DNA of 62,795 bases, filler included, from Hausera hauseri (taxonomy: Eukaryota): assembly GCA_046269625.1 (NCBI GenBank). It is 12 parts of 12 records of this genome, joined end to end, with 100 filler letters (N's around TTAATTAATTAA, not from the genome) between each part and the next. Parts side by side here need not be neighbours in the genome. Positions count along the whole stretch, not along the records: positions 58,553 to 62,795 come from JBJURY010679885.1; 11 more parts are not named here. One strand, given 5' to 3'. Positions within the stretch are counted from its first letter, which is position 1. Each line of letters opens with the position of its first letter. This document shows positions 10,999-62,795 of this stretch, one piece after another. The notes beneath the pieces are model-generated. The model was not told the DNA's origin. It saw only the letters and a list, made by a program, of their open reading frames with translations, and did no database searches. A program made the position numbers and the translations under genes.

Positions 10999-11330
10999 CA
11001 GGGTGAATGAGTTAGGAGTGTGTGTTGTGTCGAAATGTTTGAATCACTTTGTGTGGGTAGGTAAGTGATAGAGATCTGTGGTTTGATGGGTTTGTCCATG
11101 GTATCAGTTGTGGGTTATGAATCCATGCCAACACGGATACGGAAGTGAATGTGAAAATAGACATAAGTCGAATAAGGTTGGAGGAATCCAGCAATTGTGT
11201 GTGAGGTATAAGTCAGAGGAGTGGAGTAAGGTAGAGATGAAGTTGTGAATAGCCGCAATGTGTGAGTGTAATGCTGTATATGTGTGAATATATTTGTTAT
11301 TTAAAAAAAGAAAGATGGAATAGGAAGAGG
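10999..11330 (-). mobile_element. 5' fragment of a CsRn1-like Gypsy element (ubiquitin-like leader of Gag), decayed
   Basis: IFLFLNNKYIHTY...LLHSSDLYLTH...IHFRIRVGMD aligns with the leaders at 38928-39140 (-) and 59790-60010 (+). Confidence 0.55.
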
Positions 11331-11749
11331 TGATATGTCCGGGTGCATGTTTTTGGGCGTCAACGAAAAGTGTCGTCCGACCCAATGGTACAGGGTGGGC
11401 GGCCGGGACCTCAGCTTCTCCGCGGAGGCTCCCAAATTTCGGGGTAACCGAATTCGCTGCTTGCAGTATGATGAAATGCACCGGTGATGGAGTAACAAGT
11501 GGAGATGAATCACATTCTATATTCAGCATTTTGTCTTCCTGCACTTTGCCGTTCCGTTGGATACCGGTTTTCATTTCGACGAAGAGACTCGGGTCGACTT
11601 TCCATTTGTATAGTAGTCAATGTCCTCGGCTTTTCAGATGCATTTATTGCGTGGAGATCGTTGAATATGCAACTCCAGAGTTTACAGAAAATTTGAATTA
11701 TTTTCCCATTTTCGTTCTTTGTAGTTTCGATACATGAATTGGCACAACA
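11331..11749 (+). repeat. LTR of a different LTR retrotransposon
   Basis: Starts TGATATGTCC and ends GGCACAACA (imperfect TG...CA inverted termini). A PBS follows 2 nt downstream. Confidence 0.55.
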
Positions 11750-11751
11750 AT

Positions 11752-11769
11752 TGGTGTCAGAAATGGGAT
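11752..11769 (+). promoter_or_regulatory. Primer-binding site complementary to tRNA-Leu 3' end
   Basis: TGGTGTCAGAAATGGGAT, one mismatch from the common Gypsy tRNA-Leu PBS TGGTGTCAGAAGTGGGAT, directly after an LTR-like ...CA end. Confidence 0.7.
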
Positions 11770-21425: not shown

Positions 21426-23234
21426 ATGGAAAGCAAGAGAAAAAGAAGTAAAGTCTGGGACATATTCACATCTACTGAGGCAAACAAAAAAGCTAAATGT
21501 GGGTTGTGCAGCAGTATTATATCAACACCAGCAGCCTCTACAAGCAACCTAAGTAGACATCTAAAATTAAAGCACCCTTTTGTGTCATTAGAGCGCCAGC
21601 CAGAAGAACAACATACAGCTGATTTAATTGAAATTGACATCAACACGCCTACAACAAGCACAAAGAATGCTGAAGCCGTTCAGACAAAGATGTCCAGTTT
21701 TGTTAAAAGACCCATGTCTGCACATGTAAACAAAGCACTGGATGATCAGGTGTTAGTTATGTTAATTAAGGATTTTCAGCCATTTTCAGTGGTTGAAAGT
21801 CAAGAATTTAAAAAACTTGTACATATGTTAAATCCAAATTACAGTTTACCATCTAGAAAGACTGTTTCCACTGTATTATTACCTAAGTTATATTTAGAAA
21901 CAAAAGAAATTGTTAAAAAATATGTTATGGCAGCTGACTCTGTTTCTTTGACAACAGACAGCTGGACTTCCATTTCTAATGAAAATTTTCTAGCAATTAC
22001 AGCTCACTTTCTTAGTGAAAAAACTGAGATTAAATCATTTTTGTTAGACTGCTTCCAATTTAATGAAAGGCATACTGCAGAAAATTTATCTAGTGAGCTT
22101 TTAAGAATTGTAAATGAATGGAATATAAAAGATAAAGTCAGTGTTGTTGTAACTGATAATGCAGCAAATATTACAGCTGCAGTCAGGTTATGTAAATATA
22201 ATCATTTATCATGTTTTGCCCATACTCTAAATTTAATAGTACAAGCAGGGTTAAAAGAAATCAACACTATTCACAAAACAGTTAAAAGTATTGTAGAGTA
22301 TTTTAAAAGGTCTCCACAAGCTGCTCAGAAGTTACGTGTTACACAAAATCAGATGGGTCTAAATGAAATTAAGTTGAAACAAGATGTCTCAACCCGATGG
22401 AATTCCTCTTATGATATGTTTACACGGATATTAGAGCAGAAGGATCCTGTTGTCTCAACTCTTGCAATTGTAAATCCAGTTTTAAATAAACTATCTGAAA
22501 ATGACTGGTGTGTTCTTGAAAAAGCTTGTCAAATTTTATCAGTTTTTAAGGAAGTTACAGAGGAAATGAGCAGTGAAAAAAATGTCTCTGTATCCAAAAT
22601 TTTAGCTGTCATTGCAGGGTTAGAGACACATATTGATAAAGTTTTTAAAATTCCCAATCTTCCTCTTGAAATTTTTAGCATGGCAAATGTAATAAAACAA
22701 GATTTATCAAAAAGATTTAGTAATTCAGAAAAAAACTTAATCTTAGCTGAAGCCACTGCTCTAGATCCCAGGTTTAAAAAATATGGTTTTAGAAATAGTT
22801 TAAATTTTCAAAATTGTTGTACAAATATTGAAAAACAAATCTCCTCATTGCAGCCAGAAGTACAAGCAGTTACTGAATTACAGTCATATGCACCAACTCA
22901 AACTTCTACTCTTTGGGCTGAATTTGATAACCAAATGATTAATGTTATCAGTTCAGCTCATTCTACAGCCACAAATGCAGTAGAATTTGAAAGTTTTTTG
23001 CATGAACAAAATATTTTAAGACAGCAGGACCCTTTAAAATGGTGGGAAGAAAGAAAAAACCTTTATCCCAATGTGTATAAAATCATGAAAACTAGGTTAA
23101 ACATTCCTGCAACATCTGTGCCTTGTGAGAGGATATTTTCCAAGGGTGGGCAGGTACTAACCGAGCGAAGGAGTAGATTATCAGCTGATAAGTTATCACA
23201 GATCCTATTCTTAAATTATAATTATAAAAAGTAA
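21426..23234 (+). CDS. hAT transposase with BED zinc finger (ZBED1/ZBED4-like), 602 aa, intact
   Basis: BED finger SKVWDIF...AKCGLC...TSNLSRHLKLKH. Catalytic LTTDSWTS and VTDNAAN, CFAH (CxxH), TRWNS, LDPRFK. Dimerisation domain with PLKWW and PATSVPCERIFS. Confidence 0.95.
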   Translation: MESKRKRSKVWDIFTSTEANKKAKCGLCSSIISTPAASTSNLSRHLKLKHPFVSLERQPEEQHTADLIEIDINTPTTSTKNAEAVQTKMSSFVKRPMSAHVNKALDDQVLVMLIKDFQPFSVVESQEFKKLVHMLNPNYSLPSRKTVSTVLLPKLYLETKEIVKKYVMAADSVSLTTDSWTSISNENFLAITAHFLSEKTEIKSFLLDCFQFNERHTAENLSSELLRIVNEWNIKDKVSVVVTDNAANITAAVRLCKYNHLSCFAHTLNLIVQAGLKEINTIHKTVKSIVEYFKRSPQAAQKLRVTQNQMGLNEIKLKQDVSTRWNSSYDMFTRILEQKDPVVSTLAIVNPVLNKLSENDWCVLEKACQILSVFKEVTEEMSSEKNVSVSKILAVIAGLETHIDKVFKIPNLPLEIFSMANVIKQDLSKRFSNSEKNLILAEATALDPRFKKYGFRNSLNFQNCCTNIEKQISSLQPEVQAVTELQSYAPTQTSTLWAEFDNQMINVISSAHSTATNAVEFESFLHEQNILRQQDPLKWWEERKNLYPNVYKIMKTRLNIPATSVPCERIFSKGGQVLTERRSRLSADKLSQILFLNYNYKK

Positions 23235-34700: not shown

Positions 34701-36600
34701 AGAATTGCTATACCGAGTTGACGAAAATAAGAAACGACCAACATCTTAGTTTTGAAGAGTCTAAGTTCGTAAAGAAATTACTCGATGCTATAGATCCCGA
34801 CTCAAAGTTCACTAATGAGATGTACGAGTTAGCTTTTCTCTTAGTAGAAATGGCAGAAATTAATGATGAGATGAGACAATTGATGCCAAAATTACGATAA
34901 GTTGAAGAAACATGCATCAGGACTAAACAAAGAGCAACCAAGTTAGACGAACTAATGAAGGAGTTCGAAGTCTATGGGAACAAATATACTTTTACCGAGT
35001 CAGAAATCAAAAATAAACGTGAATTTGTACAAAGATGGCAAAGATATGTAACTATTGAACTAACTGATTATCACCAAAAAGGACTCATCAATTCTAATGT
35101 ATTAGGCGAATTAGTGAAAATGATTCAATATGCCTGTGGAAATGGAATAGGTATCCGAACTACGCAGATGAAAGAAATACAACCGACACTTAAAGAAATT
35201 CGAGAGAATGTACAAAGGGCGCATACAACGTTAGTAGACTATGGACTTCTAGACGTTGGAAATGAACCGGAATGGGATGCGTACTTAGATGCACTAACGA
35301 CTGAGAATCCTGTGACTCCAGTACAGCTAAATGAAATAGAAACGTGTCCGCAGAACAGGAGATTCAATGTGGAGATGCCCCTGGATTCAGCGCTAACTGA
35401 AAAAGATTTAATTGAATTAATTAACGTAAATATTACCGAAAGTAAGTCAAGACAACTTATTCCGACCTTGATTGAATTATCTATTGAGAACACTACAGCG
35501 CGGTGTCGAAACTTTTGATAAGGAAATATGCTAAAATCTTGAGGGCTAAACCTGAAGTAGCGATGAAGGTAATGGTATCATCCGAGTGGATGGATGAAAA
35601 AGAATGTGAGTCAACTACGTATTCTTATGTAAGGAACGTAAGAGAATGATTAATAAATAATGGTGGAACAAACGAGTTAAACTATAGATTCTACTTTAGA
35701 GGTAGAATACTGGACGAATTAGAACAGTTAATAGATGTTGGAATTATCCCCGGCGAAGCAAATCGAATAGTCGTGATAATAGCCAATGAACAGACTAAAG
35801 AAGAAGCCACGCGTAAGGCTAAGACAGACCAATGCGTAGGACAAATCATGGGAGTCCGAGACGCTGCAATGTATTTCGAGTATTTACAAACGGATGATGA
35901 TAAGGAACAATACGATAAGAATTGAGTGTAACTGAGTGAAACGATAACCAATGTCCCAAGGCCGAAACGCCCAGTCGGTAGGCCTAAGAAGACGCTAGAA
36001 GAAGCTGACTATAATGGTGAATTGATTAGAGAATTGAGACAGATGTCGATTCTTACCTTCACCACAGACAATGAAGAATTTAATACGAATCATAAATTAT
36101 TTAAGCCTTCGAGGTGACATATTGGATGATAAAGAGAAGGCGATATTCAATGCAGCTAGGATGATGAAAAGTTCACGTTTCAAACTATCAAAAGGTAACT
36201 TAACCGATGAATCGGTAATCGAAAAAATCATTGTGGAAAACACCACTGAAGAATTAAGAAAAATATTACTATACTTCGCTATCAAAATAAACCCTAATCG
36301 AGAGAATGAAATTAATAGAGCTACAAGCTTAGCACGAAGAGCGGCGAGAAAGCTACCCTGCGAGTTAAATTGGTCGAGATTATTCGACAAGGGAGAAGAC
36401 AAACGGTTCGGTAATAGTAATAGACTCGAAGATACGTTATATAATTTGACAACGACGGATAATAGAAATCGGAATAATGAATCAAATTGGTTAATCAACT
36501 TACTCACCTTGATGATGCTAATAAAGCAAATAGGTGCTGTTACCGTCTATGACTGCGATAAGTTTAAACTAGGACAGAAGTGCTCTCGAATGGATTTAGA
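31717..36600 (+). mobile_element. Env-in-polyprotein retroelement, copy 2: Gag, CCHC, helical region, UBL, AT-hook, signal peptide, glycoprotein start; decayed
   Basis: Retrotransposon Gag capsid (YDGDPDGL...LRTYK...LYLKNLAADAY...QQKGKSVTHFTFALKKL...QLINGI). Knuckle CFTCNKERHVARSC at 32649-32690. UBL FYFRGRILDELEQLIDVGI at ~35560-35790. KRPVGRPKK at ~35965-35991. Hydrophobic NWLINLLTLMMLIKQIGA followed by VTVYDC. Confidence 0.88.
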
Positions 36601-36700: not shown

Positions 36701-39170
36701 GAAGCACTACGTAAACCAAATGGCATAAAGATATACTCATAAAGGCCAAATGGAGTAATAACAGCTGTTTTGGGACATCATCAGGTGCAACCGGAATTTG
36801 ATGATAAGCTTTATGCAAGTTAATTATGGAGTACGTGTTAGTGTTGGTATGACTGTGCAGGATGTCCTTTATGAGAGGTAAAGGGTAAGCATCCAGGGCT
36901 GTTAGTTTGTTTAACTGCCGATAGTAACCACATGGTCTGTAAGTGCCATCTTTCTTTGTCACTGCATGCAAAGGTGAACCCCATGGAGAGTTGTATCTTC
37001 GAATAAAGCCAGCCTTTTCGAGTTTACTGAACTCTGATTCAACGGCTTTTCGCCTACAATGTGACAGTGGTCTGACCTTTTGTCTGATAGGTCTTTGGTG
37101 TTCGGTGACTATATGGTTATAAGTTGTAGAATGCGGCTTAAAATTAACGTTTATCTTGAAAGTGCGGAAACAAGAAGTTTTGATGTAGGATTTAAGATTG
37201 AATTCCAACGATAAGAATGATGAGGGCATATTATTGGAAGAGTCAGTATCTGTAATTAATGTAGAATGATTGAACACTTCATTAAGGAAATTCGGTTCAA
37301 CCGACTGTTTCCAGATTGATTTGATCCCACTTAATGAAATTGGAAATATGGATGAATTATTAAGCGTATCGTTAGCAGCCGATGAACAGTATGTAAAATT
37401 GATAATTGAATGAACAGAGGAAAACAAGAAGGTGTACGACTTGTCGTCTGGTAAGCATTTGTTGGTATTTGCAACGTAGTTTCTGTGCAGGAGACATCTA
37501 TGTTTAGAGTCGACTAACAAATCGTATGCAGCCAGGAAATCGGAGCTTATTATTTGAGATCTTATACTGGCTATGTGAAATTTCCAATAGAATTTCCCTG
37601 TTAGGTTGGAGAATATGAAGGACTGTTTTGTGGTACCTACAATGTTCACGGGTTGACCACAGGCAGGGAAGAGTGGAGGAGAGAAAACTATGTTAGATAT
37701 AGGAGCAAAGTACAAAGGAAGAAGTGAAAAGGCAGCTCCTGAGTCGATAAGGATGTCTATGTGTGAGGTGTCTCCAAATAACAGTTCAGCTTTCAACAGA
37801 AAGACTGCAGAGGCTGTGTTGAAACGGCCAAAAGATTGAGCGATATTGCCTATACCAGAATGTGCCGTGGCATCTGGCGGCGTTACTAGTTTTTTGAGGC
37901 TTGTTGGGAAAAGAAGATGAACGATGAGTACGAGGAGGCGAAGAAGATGGGAAAAAACTAGAATTCTTTTTTATAATATTTGCATCCTGGCACATATGAC
38001 CTAGCCTGAGATTAGTATTTTGTGTGATAAATGCAGATTGGACTGTCTACTGCATAAAATGCGTCGTAAAATCTGCAGCCTAAAACAAATTTCCTTGCGT
38101 CTCTGCCGAATTTATTGTGATAAAACCGACTCATTCTTCCATCTTGAGATTTGGACCGGAAGCAGCGCCTGGAAAGGCTACGATTGCGCCAAACACGGTT
38201 TTCACTTCCTGTGGGCTGTAATCGCAGAAATTGCCTGTTTGAGTGTGTCGAACTGTTTCTGCATCATATGCAGTTGCTGTAAAAATAAAGTGTTATCTGC
38301 GTGTGGTGGCGTGTGAGCGGTTGCTGCAGCTACTGGTTATGAGTTATTTGATTGTAAGATGTCGAAATTTCTATCTGCCAACAATGCGAGTTTCTCGAGT
38401 GCCGTTGAATTGTCTACGACAGTAAGCAACGCTCTGATAGAGGTTGGTAGGGAAGAAAGAAAATACCGACAAAGAATATCGGCATTGTTTGTAGGAGTAA
38501 CACCTAAGGAGCTCAGTTGAAAGATTGCGGTTTTAAGGAAATCAGATGGCTTTTGATTTCCTATGGCATGTTCATTGAAGTATTTCTGTATTATTCTGTC
38601 AATGGAAGGATCGATAATAAGTAGGATTGATTCATACGTCATGTCATATGGATTTGAACATATGAGTATGTCGGCAAGATTACTGATTTGCTGTTTGATA
38701 TTTGCTGGAAGAAGCAGCAAGCTGTTCGCCCGCAAGAAAGAATCTGTAATGTGATTGGCTTTAAGCCATTGCAAATGGAATTGTAACCAGGTGCGACTCG
38801 AATTAGTTTTGTCAAGAAAAACATCTGTGCAAGGAAGATTTAGAGATGTGGTTGGTGTGGGGACAGCAGGACGATGACCAGATCTGGTCTTGGTGGAGTT
38901 TTCAGTATAAGAAGGATCGGGGTCCGATTCACCCTGTAGGCGGAAGTGGAGTCAGGTGGGTGGTTTGGGAGGAAAAGAAAGAAAATTGGTCATGGACGTT
39001 AAGTATAGAGCCATGATACGAGATAAAAGTCTGAGGAGTGGAGGAGGAAGGATAGATGTTTGTGAAGGCAATGTAAAGTATCTATGTGTGTCGAACTGAA
39101 GGTATAGAGGTGTATATTATTGAAAATAAATAAACAGGGATAAGGGATGCGGTGCAGTGGGCGCGGTCAC
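36701..39170 (-). mobile_element. CsRn1-like Ty3/Gypsy element: UBL leader, Gag with CHCC motif, protease, RT start; decayed
   Basis: Gag ITDSFLRANSLL...GNQKPSDFL...FLSSLP...LEKLALLAD. Degenerate C-x2-H-x9-C-x3-C motif near 37985-38035. Protease LIDSGAAFSLLP...IISSDFL. RT SPWGSPLHAVTKKDGTYRPCGYYRQLN...DAYPLP...AYHQIPVAPDDVPK. Confidence 0.88.
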
Positions 39171-39321
39171 GCTCGATGCCTTAACCAATTCATTCATTGG
39201 CTGCGCATTAAGGCCGGGGCCATCTCTCAATAATAAAAAAACAGCTCTATCCTGATCAGAATTATTACAGTTCTGAGATGATGTATAAGTTTGATGTAAA
39301 TTATAAACACTGTTCCACATG

Positions 39322-40212
39322 TTAGATGACAATATACTGATATATGAATATCTCACAACAACCTTGTAATGATAGGGACTCGGAATCCCGATCATCCACA
39401 TATTCATCGATTAGTATTGGCTTCGAAGAAATACTTTTTTGGAAATTGGCGTTGGCTCGGATAAGTTTACCAAGTGCAGGTTGATCATCAGCCTCGTCAA
39501 TCTTAGTGATTGTATTATCCCAATCACGATAATCGTTTCTTTTTTTTAAATAATTTATGGTATTCCTTGGGTCAAGATACGTTTCAACAACGATAGGCCA
39601 CATTTCATCTATGATGTCAAACTTCGATAAATGTTCAACCCTCACTGGAGATGTTCTTAAATTGTTTAGATGTTTAATAATTTTCCATAGTAGCCCATTA
39701 TAACCGGTACGCATGGTTGCACAATACCCGTCTGTCAAATTAATTGTATTAAGGAAAATATCGATTGGATGCACAATGGTAATTCGATTAGGGGATTTAA
39801 CTGAAATGTCGGAAAACATTGCATCGAGAATGTTCAAAAGACCGATAAGAAAAAGCGAGTTCCATGGATATTCGGTAATGCATTTCATTATAGACGATAA
39901 GAGTTTAGATTCGGCGAGTATTGTATCCAACTTGGTATTTTTCAGTTTAATTAAATACACCACCAAAAATCCAAATTCCAATCGAATAGGATCATATGGG
40001 ATAATTTTATCTATATTGACAATTCCGGTTGGAATACTTGAAAATATTGACCTGAACCATTTTGAAGATCGAACAAAGTTCCATAGCTTGTCCAATTGGT
40101 TTTCGTAAAGGCGGATTGTGGCTACTGTCATGAAAATATTCACTTGGCTCAACGTAGTGGACAGAGTGACATTTAGCGAAGGTATGGTGTCTACTGTATT
40201 GAATTCATCCAT
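39322..40212 (-). pseudogene. SAPS-domain (PPP6R/SIT4-associated protein) C-terminal fragment
   Basis: PYDPIRLEFGFLVVYLI...SIMKCITEYPWNSLFL, RTGYNGLLWKII and WPIVVETYLDPRN match SAPS motifs (PLG..RL...L...F..Y.WNNFLH; R.GYMGHL..IAN; W..F....L...N). The N-terminal SAPS half is not present. Confidence 0.65.
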
Positions 40213-40289
40213 CGTAAACAGCCCAAGTCGAAATTGGTAAACACACCATTCAAGGGAATTTCCAGTCGAAAACACGATTTGTCATAACG

Positions 40290-42420
40290 ATTAATACACC
40301 AGGCCAATGGACCATTGGCTGAAACTAAATAATAGAAACCGCACGGTCCCAAAGCCTTCCACTTTATTTCGTCATTTGGAAACCAGGCATCATATTGATT
40401 TACATTTTTTACTATGGTCATGTCCATTTCAGAATATTCAGTAACGTGCTGAGCATATATTCGCTACTGCGCCCGGCTACTGGTGTCTTTTTATCATGTC
40501 GTATAAGTTGTAGCTTCTTTTCGGTAGTAAAGGTGCCATATTGAGCATAAGTACATTTGCCCAATATGCCATTAAACTCCTCTTAGAACACATAATCCGT
40601 TGAAATCGAGGAAGTTGACTCCATAGTGTAGACCTTGATTGAGGCAATGGTAACTCAATCTTCGTCGTATCGGTGAGAAAGACTTCCTTATGCAAAACAA
40701 ACAAGATCTCTGATCGTCTTAACCGGCTTCTTCTCAATTTTACTTATCAGTCCCATGTTTAACAAAGACTCCAGTAAATCGTTTATTTTACGGATATTTT
40801 TCCCCTGGATAAGATTCAGTAAAAGCGGTTCATTAAACGTGTTCAGATGTTCCAACGTTATCCATCTCAGAGAGTCGTTGGTCAAATAATCATGGAGACT
40901 ACACAAATAATTCCGTGGACCGAAAATCAAACAAAAAATCAACGAGGGCATTTTAAAAAGAATGCCATTGGCAGTAAATTCTCCCGATTCACACTTCATC
41001 CATAGGTGAAATGTATCTTTTCCACATATGGTCGTTAACGTACACATTAAAAACGAAGCTGTCCATCTTCAATTCGTCAGACAATTGAATTTCGGAATAA
41101 ATTCCATAGCAAATGTACTAAATGAATTCGTGAAGTAACTTCCGTTTCAACATTATTGGGAGATATGGTAGTTTAAAATCAGGAATAATTTGCGAATCAG
41201 AATGATTTGGTACTGGAAATCTTGATTTGACCAATATGTTTAAAACCGGACAAATTTTCTTTTTCTTCGATCTACCACTGAAGTGCGTCTCGATTCTGAA
41301 CTTACAAATGTTGCCATTATTGGCCTTAGCGAACATCAGTTGGCTATCGAATTTTTCCCTAAATAACTTATCCTCCTTTGTTATCCCCGAAAAAACAATC
41401 CATTTACACGACACGGTTTTCAACCCAGTATCGATATCAACGTTTATCATTTCCACTTGTTTCGCATAAACTGCATCTACCAAAATCCGACTGATACACT
41501 TTCTGTCCATAATTGCTTCCAAATTTCGACTTGCTTCCCAATCACGAATGAGTTTGATTGCCAACGGTGCTCCTTAAATAATCCACATTGATTTGATAAG
41601 TTCGATGAAATAATTATGTCGCTCTTGACGCTTACTGATGGGCATTTCAATATTGCCCATTTTCAATTGGTCATTGGTTGACAATTTTGATGAATTCAAA
41701 CCTTCAACATTCTTTTGACAGATTGCATAAAATGCCAGTGTTCGTTTTTTGATCGACTTTATACTACGCAACATTTGTTTATTTGAATCATTTTATCTAA
41801 AATACGTGATAAGTATCGTTTGGACATTTTGAATGCCAATCGGATTTCATTGAAACTTAGAGGTTGTTTAGCCAATAGTTCTACAATTTGCACTTCTATC
41901 GGTTTGTAATTGATCAATGGGACATGATCATTTGCTAAAGCAATATCCGGCAGTGGATCAGAGTCACTTTCTCGTGTGAGTATCAAATCTTCTGTATGCT
42001 GATGTAACTCTTCTAACGCTAATTTTACATCCTCTTGGGCTTTAATAAAACAAGCAGGTTTGTCAACATCGGCCTTATCATCATCGATACAAAAGTCCTT
42101 TTTATACTCTGCCAACCATTCTTCATTCGATCGACCTTCGTCCATATCACAGGAAACAACATGTTTATATGTAGCTGTGACTTTATCTAACCAATTTAAA
42201 TGCACTGCTCGTTTTAGAAATTTGTCATTCAGTTCAAGGATGTTATTAAAGGTTGACTTTAAAACACATTATGAAGTTCTCAGACGAATAAAGAAATTTT
42301 TGAAGGGATTGTTCAAAAACACTGTAAAATGGATGATAGAATTGTGATGTATGCTTTGGCGTATTGTGAAATATTTTCTGACACCAATCTGCTTCCGACG
42401 ATGATAAATCCATGAGCAGG
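40290..42420 (-). pseudogene. GTF3C1: Fragmented homolog of TFIIIC largest subunit (GTF3C1/TFIIIC220), central winged-helix region
   Basis: Collinear motifs: winged helix LSFNEIRLAFKMSKRYLSRILDKM; KRQERHNYFIELIK...MDRKCISRIL; LPYLPIMLKRKLLHEFI*YICYG (cf. GFLPKMPRL...H.FLWYLIYG); ILFKMPSLIF...YLTND...LESLLNMGLI; VFLTDTT...YWANV...PL; ALGPCGF. Contains in-frame stops and frameshifts. Confidence 0.65.
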
Positions 42421-43699
42421 TTCAGAAATTCCAGATCACAAAGAACGAAAATCCAGATAAGACGGATTGACAATACTTTATTTAGTTTCAAAATTCTTCA
42501 ACTCAATTAATCAATTTTTTACAATTATACATATATACATATATTTACAAAGGCCAAAACGTTCACGATAATCAGACTAAAACACCGCACTGTGATATCA
42601 CAAAATCCTTCTGCATGTTAGTTGGGAAAATTGTAGAAGTGTGAACTGAAGTAACAATCTCACATTCTCGTTGACAATCGATAATCCATAGGCGATTTAG
42701 GTCGTTGTTCGTACAAATTGGACGCTCCAATGTCACGAAAACTTTAATTTTTCTGACATGATTTTTTGTTTTCTTATTATTTGAATGCATGTCGTTGCGC
42801 GGATTTGTTTTGAGACACTTGTTTTTCTTTAGTGATAGAATTATTCGACTCAGTTAAATTGGAATCAAATTTTCTCAATGAGTCAGTCAAATAGCTGGCC
42901 GAATGATTGGAATCGGATGATAACGGTTATTGTTTTGATAATTTAAACTTTCCTAATCTGAATCGTAAATGTTAATTGACGTTACTTCAATTCGTGCNNN
43001 NNNNNNNNNNNNNNNNNNNNNNNNNNNNNNNNNNNNNNNNNTTAATTAATTAANNNNNNNNNNNNNNNNNNNNNNNNNNNNNNNNNNNNNNNNNNNNGTA
43101 GCAGAAGTATAATCTTTCTTCTGCTGTTTTTTCTTATTATTCGACTTCGAGGCATCTCCTCTACGTAATCTACATGATTTAGCTATATGCCCATATTTAT
43201 TACAATTAAAGCATTTTAGTCTCCCTTCGGAGTCTATATTAGGTAAGGATCTTCCATCCTTTTTAGTTCTCTTTTTATAACTTACTTTTTCTCCATCATT
43301 CCGTAGATTGAATCTAACTTTCTTTTCTCCGTCTGACTCGGCTTCTGTAGCTGACGTCTGGGAAGGACTTCTATTTCTGTCGTAACGCTGATACTTTTGG
43401 GTACTATTGTTTCGTCTTTTATCGTAGCTATTATTATTGCTTTTAGATCTGTTCCACCTATATAGTTCCGCGTCTCGTTCAGCTTTCCGTGCCTTTCTTA
43501 TTGCTTCTTGGAACGTCGGTGGGTCTGCTTGAGAAATTATCGTTCTTAATCTTTCTTCTAATCCGTATTGGAACTGGGATGTTTTCGTCTACGGGTATCC
43601 ATACTTCTCCAAATTTTCTATCCTTAGCATTTTTCACGCCTTTATTCGGTCTGATTTCTAGTAACTTCCCTGTTTGTAAATCGATTGCTATATTTGGTA

Positions 43700-43990: not shown

Positions 43991-44689
43991 GTCCTTCGAT
44001 TACTGTTCGGAAACAATTTGACGCTACGCTTGGACGTTTGATCACCGATATTTTATGTCCATTGATTCGGATTTCTGGGGAGGATACTATGTTCTCCGAT
44101 ATCTGTCTTAACTCTTCGCTTGGATATAATTCGTTGTTTTCGATGTTTAATTCCGCCGTTTCGTGAGTACTAATTAACGATTCTCGATTGTTAGTGTGTA
44201 GCTCGGTATGTTGGAAGGTTTTTAACCTCGGTTTATCCCAAACCATCGATCTAGTTTCTATATTTTTAGGTTCTCTTGGTGAGTATAACATCTTGGAATC
44301 ATCGGTGGTTTGTCGATAGCACATTCTTCGTAAAATCCCGTATCGTTTGGTTCATTCATAAGGGTCTTCTACGTTGATTGTTCTTTTATAGATTTTCGTC
44401 TGATATGAGCTCATTGAACGTTTATCACAATCTTTATAGAATGGGGCGGAAGGAGGTAGCATAGGCAACGGCGCTTTAATGACAGAGTAAGTCTTATGTC
44501 GGTTTATTCCTGAAAGCGCTTCTCCTCCCTTAGGTTCGTCATCATCTGAATCATTTCTTCGCGAATTATGTTTTGTAAATTTCCGCTTTCGCAAGAATAT
44601 GGACCTTCCTCTTCGTTTATAACAATAGTAACTGACATGGCGTTCTACGTCCCATTTCCATCTATTCTCTTCGTATGCCTTTAAGAATT

Positions 44690-46449
44690 TTGCAAAAGGC
44701 GTTATAATTGCAGTCAATATCTTACATGAAAATCCAGTCAATGTAAATATTTCATAGCCATTTATTACTGCTTGGATGACTGCTTTAATTATGTGTATCA
44801 GAAAATAAATAGGTAAGAATCCGGATGCAGCTTGTCCGAATATCAGAAATCTTCCCCGTATTTTGTATAGTATCTCAGTTGTCACTCGCGGATAATGGTT
44901 TACGCCAAGTAAAGATTCCCATTTAGCCTGGTATCGTGTATCGTCCACTACAGAAGCCATAGCTCGATTTAACTCGTGTGTTCGCTGTCGTGGGAAGGCA
45001 AGGAATTGCTTAAAAGCCTCAATTTCCTTCGGTCTGTGTATGCCTTTCGATGAAGTGTCCTGAAATTTATCGTCTGTAATTCCTTTCGCGAGATTTAGTC
45101 ATGTTAATTTATTTGGAGCGGCAATAATACCTCCATTTGGCAAACTGACCCAATCTGTCTCATTACGTCTAAACATAGGTTCTCCTAAGCTTGCCTTACA
45201 ATTTTTAAGAATGGTCGGTTGGGTAGCGTTGTCCAATAACACTCGTCAGCGGTGTAGCTAATCTTGGAATATTTTGGTAAATAACAGGAAGTTCCTGAAT
45301 GCAACGTTTTTTCTAAGTTGATAGGTACATCTCTCTTTTCACATTCATAGGTTATCAATACTTCACTTGTAACTCAACCGAATATTCCTTCTCTCATAGG
45401 AATTATTGGAAAAGCCAGTTCTGAGTTTGCATATATCAGAGCCATTTTCGTTCTCATGATTTCCGTATCCAATTTGAAATCATTCATTATCATTTTATGA
45501 TATAATTCTGTTATTCCGACTTGTCCTTTGTAGTAAAAGTAATCGTCTCTATTCTTCAGGTAATCTTCGATGCGGACATCCTGCGTTTCTAATTTATAAG
45601 CTTTTGCATTTATTCCCGTTTCTGCGACGAAAAATGCCCCATAATTCGTAGCAAACATCACTACATCACAGCGAAAGATCACCTCTTTTTTAATAGATTT
45701 CAATCCATGTTGATTCGAGATTAATATAGTGGTTGTAGAGTGTTCTGATACATCCTCACGTGTCCTGGAGTTGGTTTCCGATTTGTCCACATATCGCTTT
45801 CCTGTAGTCTCATTAAACTTTAGTTCCTTAATTTTAATAAACTTGCAACATCTTTTAGAGAGGAGGCTCCCATATTATAACCGAACTTCTAAAAGTACAG
45901 GTTCTGTTTTGTAAATGACATTTTTGATTCTCGGTATATAGTTCGGTGACAATATGGAACATTACTTTCTGTGATCGCATTTCTGATTCGTAGAAATCCA
46001 CAACCACCACGTTTGCTTCTAATCCTTTTTCGGTGTCGTATTCTGCTCCATTACAATGTCCGCTATGCATATCCAATCTTCTGGCCACTATTTTGTATGC
46101 CCTGATTATTTTTCCTGGTTGCATCTCTAATTGCATACTATCCCATTGTACTCTTCCAGTTTCCTTGGCTTGTTTGCAGTGTTGGCGTTATAAGTACAGT
46201 GGAATTAGTGGAGTGGTTGGCTTGATTATGGATAAGTGTCCGTGTACCAACCCACAGTGAAAAATGCTGCGTGATCGTCTTAGCATAAATTCCATTCCAT
46301 TTAGCGATATCAGTTCTTGCTGCTGATACAGGAAGTAATTTTTCTATTTTGTATCCAACTTGTGTGGTCTGGCATCTTCGCATACTTCCAGATCCATTAG
46401 GGAATACTCTGTCCTCATTTAAACTTATTGCAGTCGTAAACGGTTACAG
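44690..46449 (-). pseudogene. Chuvirus-like (class III, herpesvirus gB-fold) envelope glycoprotein, frameshifted
   Basis: Starts VTVYDC after a signal peptide. Cys spacing C...C-x8-CG...C...GHCNG..Y...VVV...C-x5-C...IIWE; LYHKMIMND.KL..EIMRTKMAL..ANSELA; G..GRVT.EVL..YEC; LATPLTR; GI..PKEI..F..FLAFPRQR; FLIFGQAASG...IIKAVIQAVINGY...GFS.KILTAI. This follows the chuviral/Anakin-type glycoprotein pattern as recalled; no search was run. Confidence 0.75.
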
Positions 46450-48358
46450 CGCCTATATGCTTTACTAGCATCATCAAGGTGAGTAAGCTAATTAGCCAAT
46501 TTGATTTATTTTTCCGGCATCCAACGTCTGCCGTGGTCAAATTACGTAGCATATGGTCGAGTTTATTACTGTTTCGTCTGTCTTCTTTACTGTCAAATAG
46601 TCTTGACCAATTTACTTTATAGGGCAATCTTCTTGCTGCTTTTGGTGCTAGGCTTACAGCTCTATTGATTTCGTTCTCTCGATTAGGGTTTATTTTGACA
46701 GCCAAGTATAGTAGTACTTTTCGCAACTCCTCGTTGGTGTTTTCCACCATGATATTTTGATTACCGATTCGTCGGCTAAATTACTTTTCGATACCTTAAA
46801 ATGTGAACTTCACATCCTACTGGCTGCATCGAAAATTATTTTTTCTTTACCATCTAGTGTGTTAATCCGGAGACCCGAATAATTTACAATTCGTATTAAA
46901 TTCTTCATTAACTCATTTAATTATTCGTTACTTGTACTAAATGTCGGAATCGACATCTGTCTTAGTTCTTGAATCAATTTTCCGTTATAATCAAGTTCTT
47001 CTCGTGTCTTTTTAGGCCTGCCAAATGGGCGTTTAAGCTTTGGGCCTTTAGCGGTTAGTTCACTCCGTGGTACTAAATTTATATCGTATTGTTCCTTGTC
47101 TTCATCCGTTTGTAAATACTCTAAATACATTGCAGCATCTCGGACGCCCATAATTTGTCCTACGCATTGCTCTTCCTTAGCTTTGCGAGTAGCTTCTTTT
47201 TTGTCTGTTCGTTAGCCATCGTTACTACTATTCGGTTTCTTTCGCCGGGAGTAATCCCGATATCTATTAATTGTTCTAGGTCGTCGAGTATTTTGCCTCT
47301 AAAATAAATTCTATAATTTAGCTCATTTGTTCCGCCATTATGTAACAACCATTCTCTAACGTCCCTTACATAAGAGTAAGTGGTTAGCTCACATTTTTTT
47401 TTGTCCATCCACTTAGACGATACCATTACTTTTACCGTTACCTCGGGTTTTGCCTTCAAGATTTTAGCATGTTTCCTTATCAAAAGTTTCGGCACCGTGT
47501 TATAAATGGTATTCTCACTAGATAATTTAGTTAATGTAGGAATAAGTTGTCTTAACTTACTTTCAGTAATGTTTACATTAATTAATTAAATTAAATCTTT
47601 TTTAGTTAGCGCTGAATCCAGGAGCATCTCCACATTGAATTTCTTGTTCTGCGGACACGTTTCTATCTCATTTAGTTGCACTGGAGTCGTGGGTTTTTCG
47701 GCCGTTATTGTCTCTAAGTACGCATCCCATTCCTATTCATTTCTTATATACGGAAGTCCATAGTCTACTAAGGCTATATTCATTCGTTGCACATTTTCTC
47801 GGGTTTCTTTCAATCTCGGTTATATTTCTTTCATCTGCGTAGTTCGGAAGCCTATTCCGTTTCCACGGGCATACTGAATCATTTTCAATAATTCGCCTAA
47901 ATTATTGGAATTGATAAATCCCTTTTGGTGATAATTAGTTAGTTCAATAATTACATCCCTTTGCCATCTTTGTACAAATTCTCGCTTTTTTATTTCTAAT
48001 TTTGTAAAAGCATAACTGTTTTGATAGATTTTGAGTTCTTTTGCTAGTTCATGCAGTCTCGTTGCTCTTTGTTTTGTTTTGATACATGTTTCTTCTACTT
48101 GCTGTAATTTGGGCATCAGTTGCCACATCCTCTCATCATTAATCTCCTCCATTTCCACCAATAGGTAAGCTAGCCCATATATCTCGTTTATGACTTTTGA
48201 ATCTGGATCCATTGCATCCCGCAATTTCTTTACGAATTTAGCTTCCTGAAAACTGAGANNNNNNNNNNNNNNNNNNNNNNNNNNNNNNNNNNNNNNNNNN
48301 NNTTAATTAATTAANNNNNNNNNNNNNNNNNNNNNNNNNNNNNNNNNNNNNNNNNNNN

Positions 48359-55400: not shown

Positions 55401-58400
55401 CAAAAATGAGAAACGACCACCATATTAGCTTTGAAGAATCTAAGCTTATAAAGAAATTGCTCCATGCAATAAATCCCGATTCAAAAATCATTAATGAAAT
55501 GTACGAGTCAGCTTTTCTCTTAGTAGAAATGGCAGAGATTAGTGATAAGATAAGACAATTGATGCCTAAAATAAGACAGGTTGAAGAAACATGCATTAAA
55601 ATTAAACAAAGAGCAACCAGCATAGACGAACTAATGAAAAATCTCGAAGTCTATAGGAAAAAATATGCTCTTACCGAGTCAGAAATCAAAAATAAGCGAA
55701 AATTTGTGCAAAGATGGCAAAGGGATGTAATTATCGAACTAACTGATTATCACCAAGAGGAATTCATCCATTCTAATGAATTAGGCGAACTATTGAAAAT
55801 GATTCAATACTCCTGTGGAAACGGAATAGGTTTCCGAACTACGCAGATGAAAGATATACAACCGAGATTGAAAGAAATCCGAGAGAATGTACAAAGGATG
55901 AATACAGCACTAGTAGACTATGGACTTCCAGATGTTTGAAATGAGCCGGAATGGGATGCGCATTTAGATGCGATAACGGCCGAAAATCCTGTGACTCCAG
56001 TACAGCTAAATGAAATAGAAACGTGTCCGCAGAATAAGAGATTCAATTTGGAGATGCTCCTGGATTCAGCGCTACCTGAAAAAGATTTAATTGAACTAAT
56101 TAGCGAAACATTACTGAAAGTAAGTTAAGACAACTTATTCCGACTTTGACTAAATTATCTAGCGAGAACACAGTTTATAGCGCGGTGCCGAAACTTTTGA
56201 TAAGGAAATACGCTAAAATCTTGAGGGCTAAACCTGAAGTAACAATGAAAGCAAGCATATCATCCGAGTCTATGGATGAAAAAGAATGTGACTTAACTAC
56301 GTATTCCTATGTAAGGGACGTAAGAGAATGGTCAAAAAATAATGGTGGAACAAGCGAGTTAAACTATAAATTCTATTTTAGAGGTAGAATATTGGACGAT
56401 TTAAAACAGTTAATAGACGTCGGGATTATCCCCGACAAAATAAATGGAATAGTGGTGATACTAGCCAATGAACAGACTAAAGATGCCACGCGTAAGGCTA
56501 AGACAGAACAATGCGTAGGACAAATCATAGAAGTCCGAGACGTTGCAATGTATTTTGAGTTTTTACAAACGGATGAGGACAAGGAACAATACGACACGAA
56601 TTTAGTGCCACTAAGTGAAACGATAACATATGCTCCAAGACAGAAATGCCCAGTTGGTAGACCTAAGAAATTACGAGAAGAAGCTGACTATAATTGAGTA
56701 TTAATTAGAGAATTGACAGATGTCGATTCCTACCTTCAGCACAGACAATGAATAATTCAGCGAATTAATGAAGAATTTAATACGCATTGTAAAATATTCA
56801 AGCCTTCGAGGCGACACATTAGTCCATAAAGAGAGGGCGATATTCAATGCAGTTAAGATGAGAAGTTCACGTTTTAAATTATCAAAAAATAACTTAATCG
56901 ATGAATTGGTGATCGAAAAGATCATGGTGGAAAACACCGTTTAAGAATTAAGAAAAGTATTACTGTACTTAGCTATCAAAATAAACCCTAATCGAGAGAA
57001 TGGAATTAATAGAGCTACAAGCTTAGCATGAAAAGCGGCGAGAAAGCTACCCTGCGAAGTAAATTGGACGAGATTATTCAATAACGAAAAAGATAAACGG
57101 TTCGGTAATAGTAATAGACTCGAAGATATGTTACATAATTTGGCAACGACGGATAATAGAAATCGGGAAAACGAATCCAATTGGTTAACTAGCTTACTCA
57201 CCTTGATGATGCTAATAAAGCATATAGAGAAGGAATTCTCTAATGGATTTAGAAGTGTGTGAGGACGCCAGACCACATAAACGGGAAACAAGGGAGAAAA
57301 GTTACTTCCTATATCAACAGCAAGAATTAATATTGTTCAACGGAATGGAATGTATGTTGAGACGATCTCGTAGTACTTTTCACTATGGATNNNNNNNNNN
57401 TACTTCAATAATGAAACCAACAACTCCTCCAATCCCAATGAATTTGGAACGCCAGGATTGTAAGCAGGCCAAGGAAACCCGCGGATTAAAATGGGATAGT
57501 ATGGAACTAGAGATGCAACCGGAAAAGATAATTAGAGCATATAAAGTAGTGGTTGGAAGGCTAGATATGCATAATGGACATTGTAATGAAGCAGAGTATG
57601 ATACCGAAAATAGACTAGAAGCAAACGTAGTGGTCGTAAATTTCTATAAATCGGAGATGCGAGTAAAGAAAGTAATGGCCCATAGCGTCACCAAATTATA
57701 TACCGAGAATCAAAAATGCCATTTACAAGACGGAACCTGTGCCTTCACAAGTTATGTTATAATATAGAAAACTTCCTTTGGAAGAAACTGTAATTTTATC
57801 AAAATCAAGGAATTTAAATTTAACGAAACTACCGGAAAGCGATATGTAGATAAATCCGATACCACCTCAAGGACACGCGAGGATGTAGCAGAACACCCTA
57901 CACCTACTATATCGATCTCCGACCAGCATGGACTAAAATTTATTAAGAACGAAATGATCTCTTGTTGCTAAGTGGTCATGTTCGCCACTAATTGTGAAGC
58001 ATTTTTCGTCGCAGAAACGGAAATAAATGCGAAAACGTACAAGCTAGTAACGCAGGACATTCGGATTGAGGATTAACTGAAAAACCGAGATGATTACTTT
58101 TATTACAAAGGACAAGTTGGAATAACCGAATTATATCACAAAATGATAAAGAACGATTGTAATTGGATATGGAAATCATGAGGACAAAATTGGCTCTTAT
58201 TTATGCTAATCCTGAGTTAGCCTCTCTCATAATTCCTGAGAGAATGAATTTTCGATCGCGTTACCGTTGAAGTCCTATTGACTTATGAATGTGAGAAAAG
58301 AGACGTACCAATCAACATTGAAGAAAAACATTGCATACAAAAATTCCTCTTTTCTTTACCACAATACTCCAAGGTTAGCCACACCGTTTACTAGAGTGTT

Positions 58401-58452: not shown

Positions 58453-59779
58453 NNNNNNNNNNNNNNNNNNNNNNNNNNNNNNNNNNNNNNNNNNNNTTAA
58501 TTAATTAANNNNNNNNNNNNNNNNNNNNNNNNNNNNNNNNNNNNNNNNNNNNTCGTCGTTGCATTCATTTTTCACCCCGATCCATTCGTCTGATCGTGAG
58601 GCGGCTATAATATGAAATGCTCAACTGCTGCCGGGCTACGTCCCCAACCCATTTCCATCACAGTCTGACTCGTGCCAGGGGAAATTTTACCCATTTGAAA
58701 TTTTCCCACTGATTTTTCCCCACGTTCCCATGGTCTGACCGAACTTGCAACAGTGTCCGTTGTAATCTCCAACATCGATTTACCCTTTGTACTTATTTTC
58801 CCGGCGCTAACGGCACGTATCTCGTTATGCGAGGCGCATTTCCTGTTTTGCTTCTACCTCTTCTACCGCCTCTCCCTTACATTTTTCACATACCCCACCG
58901 CTATTTACTTTTGCTCACCTCGTCATGGGCTATCGATATCACCTGGTCCGAACCTCTTTACTCGACATCATTTCCTGGGGGGAGAGTCATCCGAAATTTT
59001 TAGTGAAATGTTCAGAATAGCCCATCAGGTGGGGAAAACTGGTCGGCGGACCAATCAGAGATTGTTTTGATAAGTGGTTACGAGCTGACACTTCTACCTA
59101 CTGATCAATATCACTACAGAGAACGCCATCAGTGCATTGACAAAAATCTGTAAATATCGACCGGATTGTATACCGGATGGTGATCTGAATGGATTCCTCA
59201 GTAAATGGATCCTCGCCAATCTAGGAGGATGGGGAAGAAACATCAACATTCCATCCACTATATGGATACGCTTTGGAACTCATTCAGCATAGGTACATCA
59301 CTAAAATGTTAAATAAAGATTCGAAGTATTCAAATTTATCCGATAATACCCGTGCTCTCTATTAAGTAAAACAGGGGAAGTGAAACAGAAAAGTGAGTCA
59401 AAACCTCCGCTAGGTCACATACTATTTCATCATGAAACGCGGGAGAATATTATGTGTAAGAATCCAGACGAAAGAATCTTTCAAATATGGCAAAATCCGG
59501 CAGACGTTGCACTATCGCAGATGTTTACACGCAGGTTGGTGGAGTTTTTGTTGCTGATTGGCGCTCAGCAGTGCAACCATTTTTTACGAATATACAAATC
59601 TTTAATAGCTAACACCAATTTTAATTTTAAAAGGCTTTTAAGTTCAAAAACTTTGGATATTATTTGATCACAATTAATATTTGCCACTATTTTCTTGGCT
59701 GCACGCTCCAACCTCTTCATGGCCCAAAAGGAAACCGCCCAAGCCCCCATGCATATCAACGTTCTCCTGGCATTAATTC

Positions 59780-62700
59780 ACTGCAACTTTCCTTCCTGGT
59801 CTTCTGCAATAATCAGCATATAAAAACAATAAGAGCTCCACTCAACGACACGGCACAGTCTTTATACAACTTGTCCTCCTTATTCAACAATTCTGACTTC
59901 TACTTCACATATCAAGGTCTTACTATACACTCCTCCGACTCCCTCTCACTGTTCACAGGTCGCGAACATCCGATCATCCACCTCGCTCTCCATTTCCGCC
60001 TCTGGGTGGATCGGACCCAAATCCATCTTTCTCAGATGATAAATCTACATATATATGTAATATATATCGTTTATCAAACTTTCATCAATCACGAGCCTCG
60101 CCAAATCTACCTTGTGTGGATTTTTTTCTTGATAATAATAATTCCAGTAAACTAAGGCTCCAATTCAATCAACAATGGCTAAAATCCAACAATATCACTG
60201 ACTCTTTTGTGCGAGCTAACAGTCTTTTAATTATTCTGACTGCTAACATCAAGCCACAGATCAATAACATCTCCGAACTGTTCCAATCCTCGACACCTTA
60301 CGAAACACTCTTTGAAATCCTCCACACAAATAATTCTCTTACAATTGCGGCTGCAACTACACATACACCAAATATAGACACCATATTTTTCTCTCAACAA
60401 TTGCAAATGATGCAACAATAATTTGATACATTACAGTAGTCAGTTTCGGCCATTACCACCCAACTAAATAATCTTAATGGACCTTGGTGTAGTGAAACCA
60501 GGCCTTTAAGGGAGCGAAGTCTTTCAAGACACACTTCTCGATCCACATCCCCTGGGGGACATATGGCTTGCTTCTATCACACGCGGTTTCGAAAAGATGC
60601 AAGGACATGTTTCTTGGAATTCCGGTTCTAAGCGAACGATATGCTGGGGACAACCCTATTTGCATCTACCATAATAATTATCAGTCACAGGCCAGATCAT
60701 GTGTGCCTGGTTGCAGACATTACAAAATAAGTCTATTTATTTTTCTTCTTCTCTTTTCCCAAACCCTTCAAAAAAGTAATAACGCCGCCATATTCCAAGG
60801 CGCATTCTGGTATAGGCAATACATTACATTCTTCTGGCCGTCTTAATACCACCTCTGCAGTCTTTCTGTTGAAAGCTGCAATCTTCTCTGACGATTCATC
60901 AAATATAGACTTTTGCATCAATTCTGGAGCCACCTTTTTGCTTTTACCACTATCTTTCGCTCCAACGTCCAACAATTTTTCTTCTCAACTCTTCACAGCT
61001 AGTGGGCAGCCTTTGCCTTTGTTGGCACCACAAAGCTAAGTTTTACCTTCTACAATTTACCAGACAAGTTTTTGGAAACTTTTGATAGCTAACATAAAGT
61101 CATCAACAATCGGCTCAGATTTCCTGGCCGCACATGATCTGTTAGTTGATTGTAAATATGGCTGTCTGCTGCGAATGAATTCGACCGCAAATCCAATCAA
61201 ATGTCTCACAGGCAATCTAGCGAGCAATTCATTGCATTCATCTGTAAATATATTGAACACCTCGTCAACTATTGACAAAACTTTCAATAATATTAGTTTT
61301 CTTTCAATTATGAATGATAATCACAAATCTATTTTAAAACAAAAATCCAAGTTGAATGTTGACAGTGGCAATGTCGGTTGTTCTTCGTCAATTACTGCAA
61401 CTATTTCCTACGATAACATGTCTCAACCATTCTTGTCTCTAGATTCCGATCTTAAATCATACATCACAGCATCTTGCTTTCGTATAGTTAAAAGGGACAT
61501 CAATTTTAAGCCTCCATCCTCAATTTATAGTCAAATAGTAACAGAATATCAGAGGCCTATCAAACAAAAGGTCAGACTTTTCTCGCCACGCAGACGTAAA
61601 GCTGTGGAACAGGAATTCAATGCACTTGAAAAATCTGGTATCATTGGGAGATGAAATTCTCCTTGCGCTTCACCACTTCATGTAGTAGCAAAGAAAGATG
61701 GTACCTATAGGCCATAAGGCGATTATCGTCAAGTAAACAACCTGACTATCATAGATGCTTATCCACTACTCCTCATTAAGGACATCCTTCACATCCTCAA
61801 TAACACTAATACATATTCTACCACTGATCTGCATAAGGCCTATAATTAAATTCCTGTTTCACCTGATGGCATTCCAAAAACTGCTGTTATCACACCATTT
61901 GGCCTTTATGACTACATCGTCATGCCTTTTGGCCTACGTAGCGCATATCAGACCTTTGAATGTCACATTGATACCGTACTCTCAGGTCTTGAGTTTGCTC
62001 ATCCGTACACATGCGACATATTAGTTGCTTCCGCCTCGATCAAACAACATCATGAGCATCATCGAATTATTTTCCACAGATTGCATCAAAGCAACCTGGA
62101 AATTAATTTATCCAAATGTAATTTCTTTCAGAAACGCGTCAACTTCTTAGGCCACATAATTACTCCCGATGGTCATTCTCCCCAGCCTGACAGCTTAAAA
62201 CATTTAAAAAATGTCACATTACCAACGACTACCACGGACATAAGGAGTTTTCTAATGACACTACATTTCGTACACAAATACATGCCACACTGCTTTGAAC
62301 TAACGGCACCTTTCGCACACCTCTCTTCCGGGAAGAAAAGACAACTAATCCACTGGACTTCTGATCAAATAAACCAATTTGATTGCCTTCGTGAAGGCCT
62401 AAAAACCGTTGGAATCTTGGCTTTTCCAAAACCCAACGCGGAACTCATACTAATCACCTATGCCTAAACCACAGCCACTGATGCGATATAACACCAAATA
62501 TATAATGGTGTTGATGAGCCGTTAGAATTCTTTTCCCGAAAACTAACACAACCAAAAGTCGATACTCAACATTCTACCATGAGCTCCTAGCCATAGTTCT
62601 GGAGGTAAAGCATTTCAAGAATTTGCTTCTATCACATCAATTTGTCATTCAAACCGACCACAAGCCTGTGCTGCATGTCATGACGTAAAATCAGCCATCA

Positions 62701-62795
62701 TGCAGACAAGAACGACAAATATTTTATCTGCCGACATTTACCTCTTCTATGAAATATATTTCAGGCATCGAAAATTTGGTAGCAAATTTTCTGTC
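59780..62795 (+). mobile_element. CsRn1-like Ty3/Gypsy element: UBL leader, Gag (CHCC), protease, RT, RNase H; decayed, runs off window
   Basis: Gag ITDSFVRANSLL. CIYHNNYQSQARSCVPGC is the CHCC motif typical of the CsRn1 clade. Protease INSGA...IGSDFL. RT MPFGLRSAYQTF...Y.DDI-like...KCNFFQKRVNFLGH. RNase H PLEFFSRKL...HELLAI...TDHKP. Confidence 0.9.

Follow-up and report, generated by a model that had tools for sequence, protein, structure and literature searches.

The DNA analysed here (the window, 62,795 nucleotides) comes from Hausera hauseri (GCA_046269625.1) and carries three decayed copies, named L, H and C, of a leader that is predicted to fold as ubiquitin and that belongs to a CsRn1-like Gypsy retrotransposon. 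The window is made of 13 separate contigs joined by 12 linkers (each N44-TTAATTAATTAA-N44), and since the three copies lie on three different contigs, they are not neighbours (Table 1). The original prediction had placed a ubiquitin-like leader upstream of Gag in all three copies, each one change away from an HFR(L/I)xGG tail. Translation confirmed the leaders where they had been placed and as they had been read. The single change holds for the tails, but copies H and C carry further lesions, and the position ahead of Gag holds for L and H, but is not shown for C. In copy L, one open frame (59631-60002) runs to the tail HFRL, and Gly-Gly-Ser-Asp-Pro (from 60005) and Gag are read in a different frame; about 90 residues of the capsid are deleted. 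The leader of copy H has three frame changes and one stop and ends in HFRLQGE, after which Gag follows in frame. Copy C has one frame change and the tail HFRIRVG, and a tblastn search with two Gag queries gave no Gag match in the approximately 130 bases between this tail and the contig end. All three copies are dead remnants.

The copies are nevertheless related. Alignment of the leader DNA scored 155 for L and H against a shuffle maximum of 112, and 126 for L and C against 105 (300 shuffles each). The conserved part starts about 18–30 codons ahead of the ubiquitin fold (59739 in L, 11412 in C), and this extension is common to L, C and two of the intact relatives described below, P0005 and P0008. 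Downstream, the pol DNA of L and H is 68% identical, and that of L matches the Pfam families RVT_1 (E 6.8e-14) and RT_RNaseH_2 (E 0.008). Protease, reverse transcriptase (RT) and the start of RNase H are present on both the L and the H contig, which stop before any integrase. No pair of long terminal repeats (LTRs) was found in the window. In a public run (X1), the depth is 30,000-88,000 over 58553-59120, compared with 50-550 over 59121-60114; the former segment is a very common repeat, perhaps the head of an LTR.

The leader is coding. Run X1 holds many diverged copies of the element; 8,039 of its contigs map to the L contig, and 167 to the part with the leader. Using the best 40 of 60 variant rows by support, 39 of which fall inside the leader frame, we found that third codon positions account for 22 of the 38 variable places (p=0.0016). 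Synonymous differences number 22 of 39, against 13.5 expected for the same mutation types (p=0.003), and the same variant rows display no such excess in the other two frames. A direct comparison of the L and H DNA likewise has most mismatches at third positions (33/66, versus 24/67 and 18/68 at the others). The frame break of L is not common to all copies, because four X1 contigs differ from L in length at this point.

Intact versions of the arrangement occur among predicted proteins. The Gag of copy H as query retrieved three relatives among longer proteins and no homologue among proteins of near length; the leader region of P0005 had no homologue among shorter proteins, and the 593 pattern matches obtained from metagenome contigs included no relative. 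In P0005 and P0006, leader and Gag share one frame (tails HFRLRGG and HFRLCGG, respectively), and CX2HX9CX3C knuckles follow. An intact in-frame Gly-Gly is found in P0008 as well, and P0005 and P0008 have two CHCC knuckles each. P0007 is a chimera without a Gag start.

When 1.84 billion representatives were searched with a profile, 2,213 matched, and 150 of these were considered. The resulting tally covers 151 proteins (149 new matches plus P0005 and P0008), in which we looked for a Gly-Gly 8-60 residues ahead of the capsid with a hydrophobic residue at P4. Among 35 Gags with two knuckles the motif is present in 29 and the other six are too short to judge, so that it occurs in 29/29 where there is room. 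The 106 Gags with one knuckle comprise 84 short sequences, 21 roomy ones without the motif and a single one with it (1/22 of those having at least 45 residues of room); this sole match, P0037, shows no ubiquitin sign. Three of the ten knuckle-less proteins have the motif. In a tree of 140 rows, built from capsid and first knuckle alone after exclusion of 11 truncated rows, one branch of 36 rows unites 32 with Gly-Gly and four that are too short (SH-aLRT, a Shimodaira-Hasegawa-like likelihood ratio test, 95), and a careful tree of 29 rows gives a support of 96/98 for 13 of those clade rows. DUF7041, which we take to be a marker of CsRn1-type Gags, is found in 20 of 23 clade members. Judged by these protein sequences, a leader with Gly-Gly ahead of Gag is a clade-wide feature of CsRn1-like two-knuckle Gags. 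The Gag appears CsRn1-like by its knuckles and capsid, the trees here being trees of unnamed Gags. The tandem pair of CHCC knuckles accompanies the leader clade-wide (P0005-P0138; 60569-60714 in the window; 29/29 with room).

The ubiquitin fold is predicted from models and profiles. Pfam gave no ubiquitin match for the L leader, the C leader, or the whole of P0005 and P0006, and phmmer no match for the L leader in PDB. In an Atlas feature search, the top entries were unnamed clusters of 74-78 residues (0.93-0.94), followed by ubiquitin or Rad60-SLD clusters at 0.89-0.92. AlphaFold models of L and P0005 have the order strand-strand-helix-strand-strand-strand, as in ubiquitin. The Foldseek matches listed are ubiquitin, ISG15, SUMO, NEDD8 and kindred folds (best E 0.006), and the VIA matches are mostly beta-grasp domains (best Z 5.4, root mean square deviation (rmsd) 2.8, 64 aligned). 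The P0005 model shows the ubiquitin-like domain at residues 17-93, then a linker of low confidence and a capsid of two lobes that resembles those of murine leukaemia virus, PEG10, Arc and Ty3 (best Z 10.0, rmsd 2.5, 81 aligned). Pfam ubiquitin matches 11 of 31 proteins with Gly-Gly, three of them above the curated cut-off, versus 0 of 7 controls. A profile of 23 relatives, from which P0060 was left out, aligns with ubiquitin end to end, reaching E-values of about 1e-9 with single-ubiquitin chains. The original prediction had proposed a coding, beta-grasp leader in frame with a CsRn1-like Gag through an intact Gly-Gly, and on these points it is borne out: the leader is coding, the Gag has the knuckles and DUF7041, the fold is predicted, and an in-frame Gly-Gly is present in P0005, P0006 and P0008 and in 32 of the 36 clade rows, the other four being too short.

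Leaders diverge strongly (median identity 19%, n=28; 33% for their capsids), and what they keep is informative. The surfaces around Arg42, Ile44 and Val70 are needed for binding to E1, E2 and receptors. Among 27 leaders, Ile44 is retained in none, Val70 in two, Arg42 in three and Lys48 in nine, in a ubiquitin numbering that is unreliable ahead of about position 35; Leu occupies each of the core positions 43 and 50 in 20 of these 27. A basic residue, Arg or Lys, stands at position 72 in 25/32, and several members have the tail Arg-Leu-Arg-Gly-Gly, the same as ubiquitin. In SDE2, cleavage by USP5, a ubiquitin-specific protease (USP), requires Gly-Gly and an Arg matching Arg72 of ubiquitin, and a Leu matching Leu73 helps (available text of PMC13572447). 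Together with these requirements, the position counts suggest that the fold and a tail read by deubiquitinases are kept, whereas the conjugation surface is lost. The residue after Gly-Gly (n=32) is Ser in 13, Thr in four, Met, Gly and Asn in three each, Ala in two, and Asp, Gln, Lys and Val in one each; Pro does not occur (0/32). The linker from Gly-Gly to the capsid, 10-44 residues long, is predicted to be flexible.

One member seems to have acquired its leader anew. In P0060, residues 177-252 are identical to ubiquitin at 55 of 76 positions, without Met1, and Arg42 and Ile44 are retained. This leader is only 15-22% identical to those of five sisters, whose capsids are 60-70% identical to that of P0060, while the leaders of two sister pairs share 34-36%. 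These sequences suggest that the old leader was likely replaced in register by a fresh host ubiquitin mRNA, which fits a role that any cleavable ubiquitin could fill. P0127, a classical one-knuckle Gag, has a ubiquitin-like unit (residues 453-520) that ends in RLRGG and is followed by Met. An approximately unbiased (AU) test rejects its joining the two-knuckle clade (p 0.0008; the group was named after the first tree). The filter placed it among the 21 one-knuckle Gags without the motif, as its Gly-Gly lies too near the capsid. Provided that the gene model is real, P0127 is a separate gain.

The start of translation is probably variable. A Met near ubiquitin position 1 is present in 2 of 28 leaders, and 6 of 28 gene models lack a Met over the 140 residues up to the Gly-Gly end. 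A Met lies 15-30 residues ahead of the fold in copy H, P0005, P0006, P0012 and P0040. The frame of copy C is open for 98 codons upstream of the leader (open reading frame 11104-11616), and its only ATGs, at 11574 and 11529, lie upstream of a 12-mer resembling a tRNA-Trp primer site, with none between this 12-mer and the leader. The primer-site pattern has six matches in the window against 1.8 expected, which is a weak excess, and none of them is near L or H. Among the 33 gene models scanned, a host domain precedes the leader in six (arginine methyltransferase; Rrp44 and CNOT1; histone H2A; SCC3; 5'-nucleotidase; RING).

Two arrangements in the window touch on the same region. On the minus strand of the C contig, an integrase is followed by a G run, TGTAG at 12408, some 950 bases, the primer-site-like sequence and leader C; the segment 12417-11439 is likely one LTR-position segment between tandem elements. 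Upstream of copy H, intron-free host-like frames (39322-42268, minus strand; weak matches to SAPS, E 0.07, and GTF3C1, E 0.001) end about 125 bases before the ATG, in the expected LTR position.

The reading that we favour, with a probability of roughly 55%, is that a clade of CsRn1-like Gypsy elements places Gag behind a Gly-Gly-terminated ubiquitin-like unit which a host deubiquitinase cuts, thereby freeing Gag from variable upstream translation. Translation would start upstream of the ubiquitin fold, at a variable place and at times within host-gene scraps in or near the LTR. A host enzyme of the USP type would read the Arg/Lys-Leu-x-Gly-Gly tail and cut after it; the freed Gag, with a fixed and mostly stabilising first residue, would assemble normally, and the upstream piece would be discarded. 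The arrangement may have originated through template switching, by which the element took up a host ubiquitin mRNA that then became fixed before the old Gag start, and fresh ubiquitin would have replaced the leader at least once. Taking together all readings that involve it, cleavage after Gly-Gly by host deubiquitinases is highly probable. The usual processing enzyme of Gag is the protease that the element itself encodes, a candidate that we rejected for this cut, since retropepsins prefer hydrophobic residues around the cleavage site.

The original prediction had seen the use of the leader in making the Gag N-terminus. An ordinary Met start could also yield most of the residues seen after Gly-Gly, and this proposal is weakened because 26 of 32 (Ser, Thr, Met, Gly, Ala or Val) are obtainable in this way. 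The likelier use of the leader is to separate Gag from an upstream extension that varies. A wider claim, which we advance only tentatively and would not ourselves bet on, is that LTR retrotransposons of invertebrates have repeatedly placed a host-cleavable ubiquitin before Gag (at the base of the two-knuckle clade, refreshed in P0060, and separately in P0127). There it would act as an insulator that tolerates changing host cargo, and the deubiquitinase would be a required enzyme of capsid maturation.

Several observations weigh against the release of Gag from variable upstream translation. The ATG of copy H lies only 21 codons ahead of the fold and copy L has no in-frame ATG from 59631 on, so that a start far upstream either is not the rule or cannot be seen. 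No copy among the three in the window is intact. The relatives are predicted proteins, known here without their DNA, and their upstream host domains may reflect predicted splicing; P0060, too, is a single gene model. The variant test rests on the best-supported 40 of 60 rows from one run, and the pairwise codon-position counts are mixed, with L-C mismatches mostly at first positions. Model confidence is middling (mean pLDDT, the per-residue confidence score, 60.7 for L; no Foldseek E below 0.001; VIA Z of 5.4 at best). The filter required a hydrophobic P4, so that counts at P4 are circular, and the alignment A4 was drawn from proteins with Gly-Gly. Finally, 7 of 32 leaders lack a basic residue at position 72, and some leaders may be cut poorly or by other enzymes.

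It is also conceivable, though rather unlikely, that host deubiquitinases cut the leader but that its use is to aid folding or expression of Gag or to delay assembly, as in the ubiquitin-ribosomal fusions, with translation from a nearby fixed ATG. Ubiquitin fusions have a chaperone effect, the evidence from the tail is equal under both readings, and the Met residues shortly before the fold in copy H and the four relatives would provide such a start. A fixed nearby start is hard to reconcile with the 6 of 28 gene models in which Met is missing over 140 residues, with the Met-free interval between the primer-site-like sequence and leader C, and with the missing Met1 in the near-true ubiquitin of P0060, which fits a start further upstream.

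According to another proposal, which takes up the conjugatable decoy of the original prediction, the unit released by the cut is itself the product. It would act as a decoy, becoming conjugated to host proteins or occupying E1, E2 or deubiquitinases, and would blunt a defence against the element. Once cut, the Gly-Gly end would be free, on a tail that in several members is identical to that of ubiquitin; six of 28 leaders lack lysine in their last 72 residues and would cap chains, and rapid divergence is compatible with conflict. The near-complete loss of Ile44, Val70 and Arg42 disfavours a conjugatable decoy, a long and variable N-terminal extension would make a poor modifier, and the swap for plain ubiquitin in P0060 suggests that no special surface is important. 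We regard it as improbable. Equally poor are the prospects of an uncut domain that stays on Gag as a substitute for matrix and binds a host partner or targets the particle. The leader does occupy the position of the retroviral matrix ahead of the capsid, and Burro elements hold an internal Ubi2/SUMO-like domain (PMC6431247, in the part available). However, the Gly-Gly is the best-kept part of the leader and the binding surface the least-kept. Usually, a ubiquitin-like domain integral to a larger protein has lost this motif, and so has the internal one of a second element in the window. That the leader is a neutral scrap of a host gene or an artefact of gene prediction, as the host domains in 6/33 gene models might suggest, is very improbable and already largely refuted by the synonymous excess and by retention throughout a clade with 33% median capsid identity, besides the same leader place in the genomic DNA of L and H.

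The closest parallels come from viruses and from host precursors. FUBI-eS30 and the ubiquitin-eS31/eL40 fusions are comparable precursors with an N-terminal ubiquitin fold and Gly-Gly. In bovine viral diarrhoea virus (BVDV) CP Rit, a ubiquitin without its own start lies behind other host sequence, and cutting by host hydrolases results in the authentic NS3 start (available text of PMC8310069). Like such pestivirus insertions, the leader would be a captured ubiquitin without its own start directly before a viral protein; the pestivirus cases are sporadic, with near-intact ubiquitin and demonstrated cleavage, whereas here the unit is an old, fixed and strongly diverged feature of a retrotransposon clade, placed before the capsid, with cleavage that we infer. 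SDE2 has an N-terminal ubiquitin fold that ends in Gly-Gly and a tail read by a USP (PMC13572447, in part). SDE2 exposes a destabilising Lys and has its own C-terminal domain, while here Lys follows Gly-Gly in one of 32 leaders and the capsid comes next. A profile of four sequences had SDE2 as its sole PDB match (8ro1_X, E 0.068). An origin from SDE2 is nevertheless made less likely: in the 23-sequence profile, SDE2 is not in the best 60 matches, which include ubiquitin and ISG15, and the Sde2 family is absent among the Pfam matches listed (25 of 28 families).

With the CsRn1 clade (CsRn1, PwRn1, AgCR1-14; features from the available text of PMC2582038) the element shares the CX2HX9CX3C knuckle, the DUF7041 capsid N-lobe and the order of Gag, then protease and RT, but it differs in its tandem knuckles and ubiquitin-like leader; the main text of that paper does not contain the word 'ubiquitin'. 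The giant planarian Gypsy elements Burro/GYPSM1 have a ubiquitin/SUMO-like domain within the polyprotein, internal between MATH and BCL-2 in a frame of 4,900 residues with env, and the available portion of PMC6431247 mentions no Gly-Gly leader on Gag. The Gag studied here, in contrast, has about 440 residues and ends after the knuckles, and the domain is N-terminal with Gly-Gly. As far as described there, Burro sets a precedent for such a domain, but none for a Gag with a Gly-Gly leader. LTR-mediated retroposition offers a route for in-frame capture of ubiquitin mRNA, and the portion available of PMC5131818 has nothing on a ubiquitin unit attached to Gag. We found no earlier description of a Gly-Gly ubiquitin-like leader on Gag in the literature covered, which left Repbase, Dfam, most subscription journals and supplements outside. 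The architecture is clade-wide, apparently undescribed and built on a known processing trick. The 2A peptides of non-LTR elements are reportedly another processing signal borrowed by retroelements.

The window contains further elements. The second element with an internal ubiquitin-like domain (Pfam E 0.004, no Gly-Gly) also has a fusion glycoprotein of the Monjiviricetes type (E 6e-18) and is Burro-like. Three other features were labelled from their translations and are given in Table 1 as presumed.

Table 1. Features of the window; positions count along the whole window.
Feature	Position	Strand	Remarks
Copy L, contig	from 58553	+	last contig of the window
Copy L, conserved N-terminal stretch ahead of the ubiquitin fold	59739..59792	+	tblastn with P0005 leader: 59739-60002 at 46%
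Copy L, ubiquitin-like leader	59793..60002	+	open to HFRL; fold predictions; synonymous excess among X1 copies
Copy L, Gly-Gly codons in Gag frame	60005..60010	+	frameshift between leader and codons
Copy L, decayed Gag	60011..60780	+	linker, capsid N-lobe, ~90-residue deletion, coiled coil, two CHCC knuckles
Copy L, knuckle 1	60569-60610	+	CHCC, final Cys lost
Copy L, knuckle 2	60661-60714	+	CX2HX9CX3C, complete
Copy L, decayed pol	60750..62795	+	protease region, RT, RNase H start; reaches window end
Copy H, contig	36701-42997	-	
Copy H, leader	38928..39197	-	ATG 21 codons ahead of first strand; 3 frame changes, 1 stop; HFRLQGE
Copy H, Gag and pol	36701..38927	-	Gag: one stop, decayed knuckles; pol: DSG protease, RT start; contig end
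Copy C, contig	10999-15306	-	
Copy C, extension and leader	11127..11412	-	one frame change; HFRIRVG; contig end at 10999
Copy C, tRNA-Trp primer-site-like 12-mer	11439..11450	-	2 mismatches to the pattern; leader frame open across
Second element, stretches	47160-47585, 56104-56697, ~35494-36008; 44355-46187, 57228-57764	-, +, +; -, +	
Presumed Ski2-like helicase frame	1356-4595	-	intron-free
Presumed Polinton-like polymerase fragments	15975-18769	-	
Presumed hAT-like transposase frame	21417-23234	+	

With 32 leaders, 19% identity and one kept tail, the clade amounts to a natural scan of what deubiquitinases require. If the favoured reading is true, deubiquitinases would be host factors, and possible control points, of retrotransposition, and the leader would represent, fixed and long-lived, what arises by accident in pestiviruses. 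The arrangement may further account for the way in which elements whose ends fill with host-gene scraps still obtain a proper capsid.

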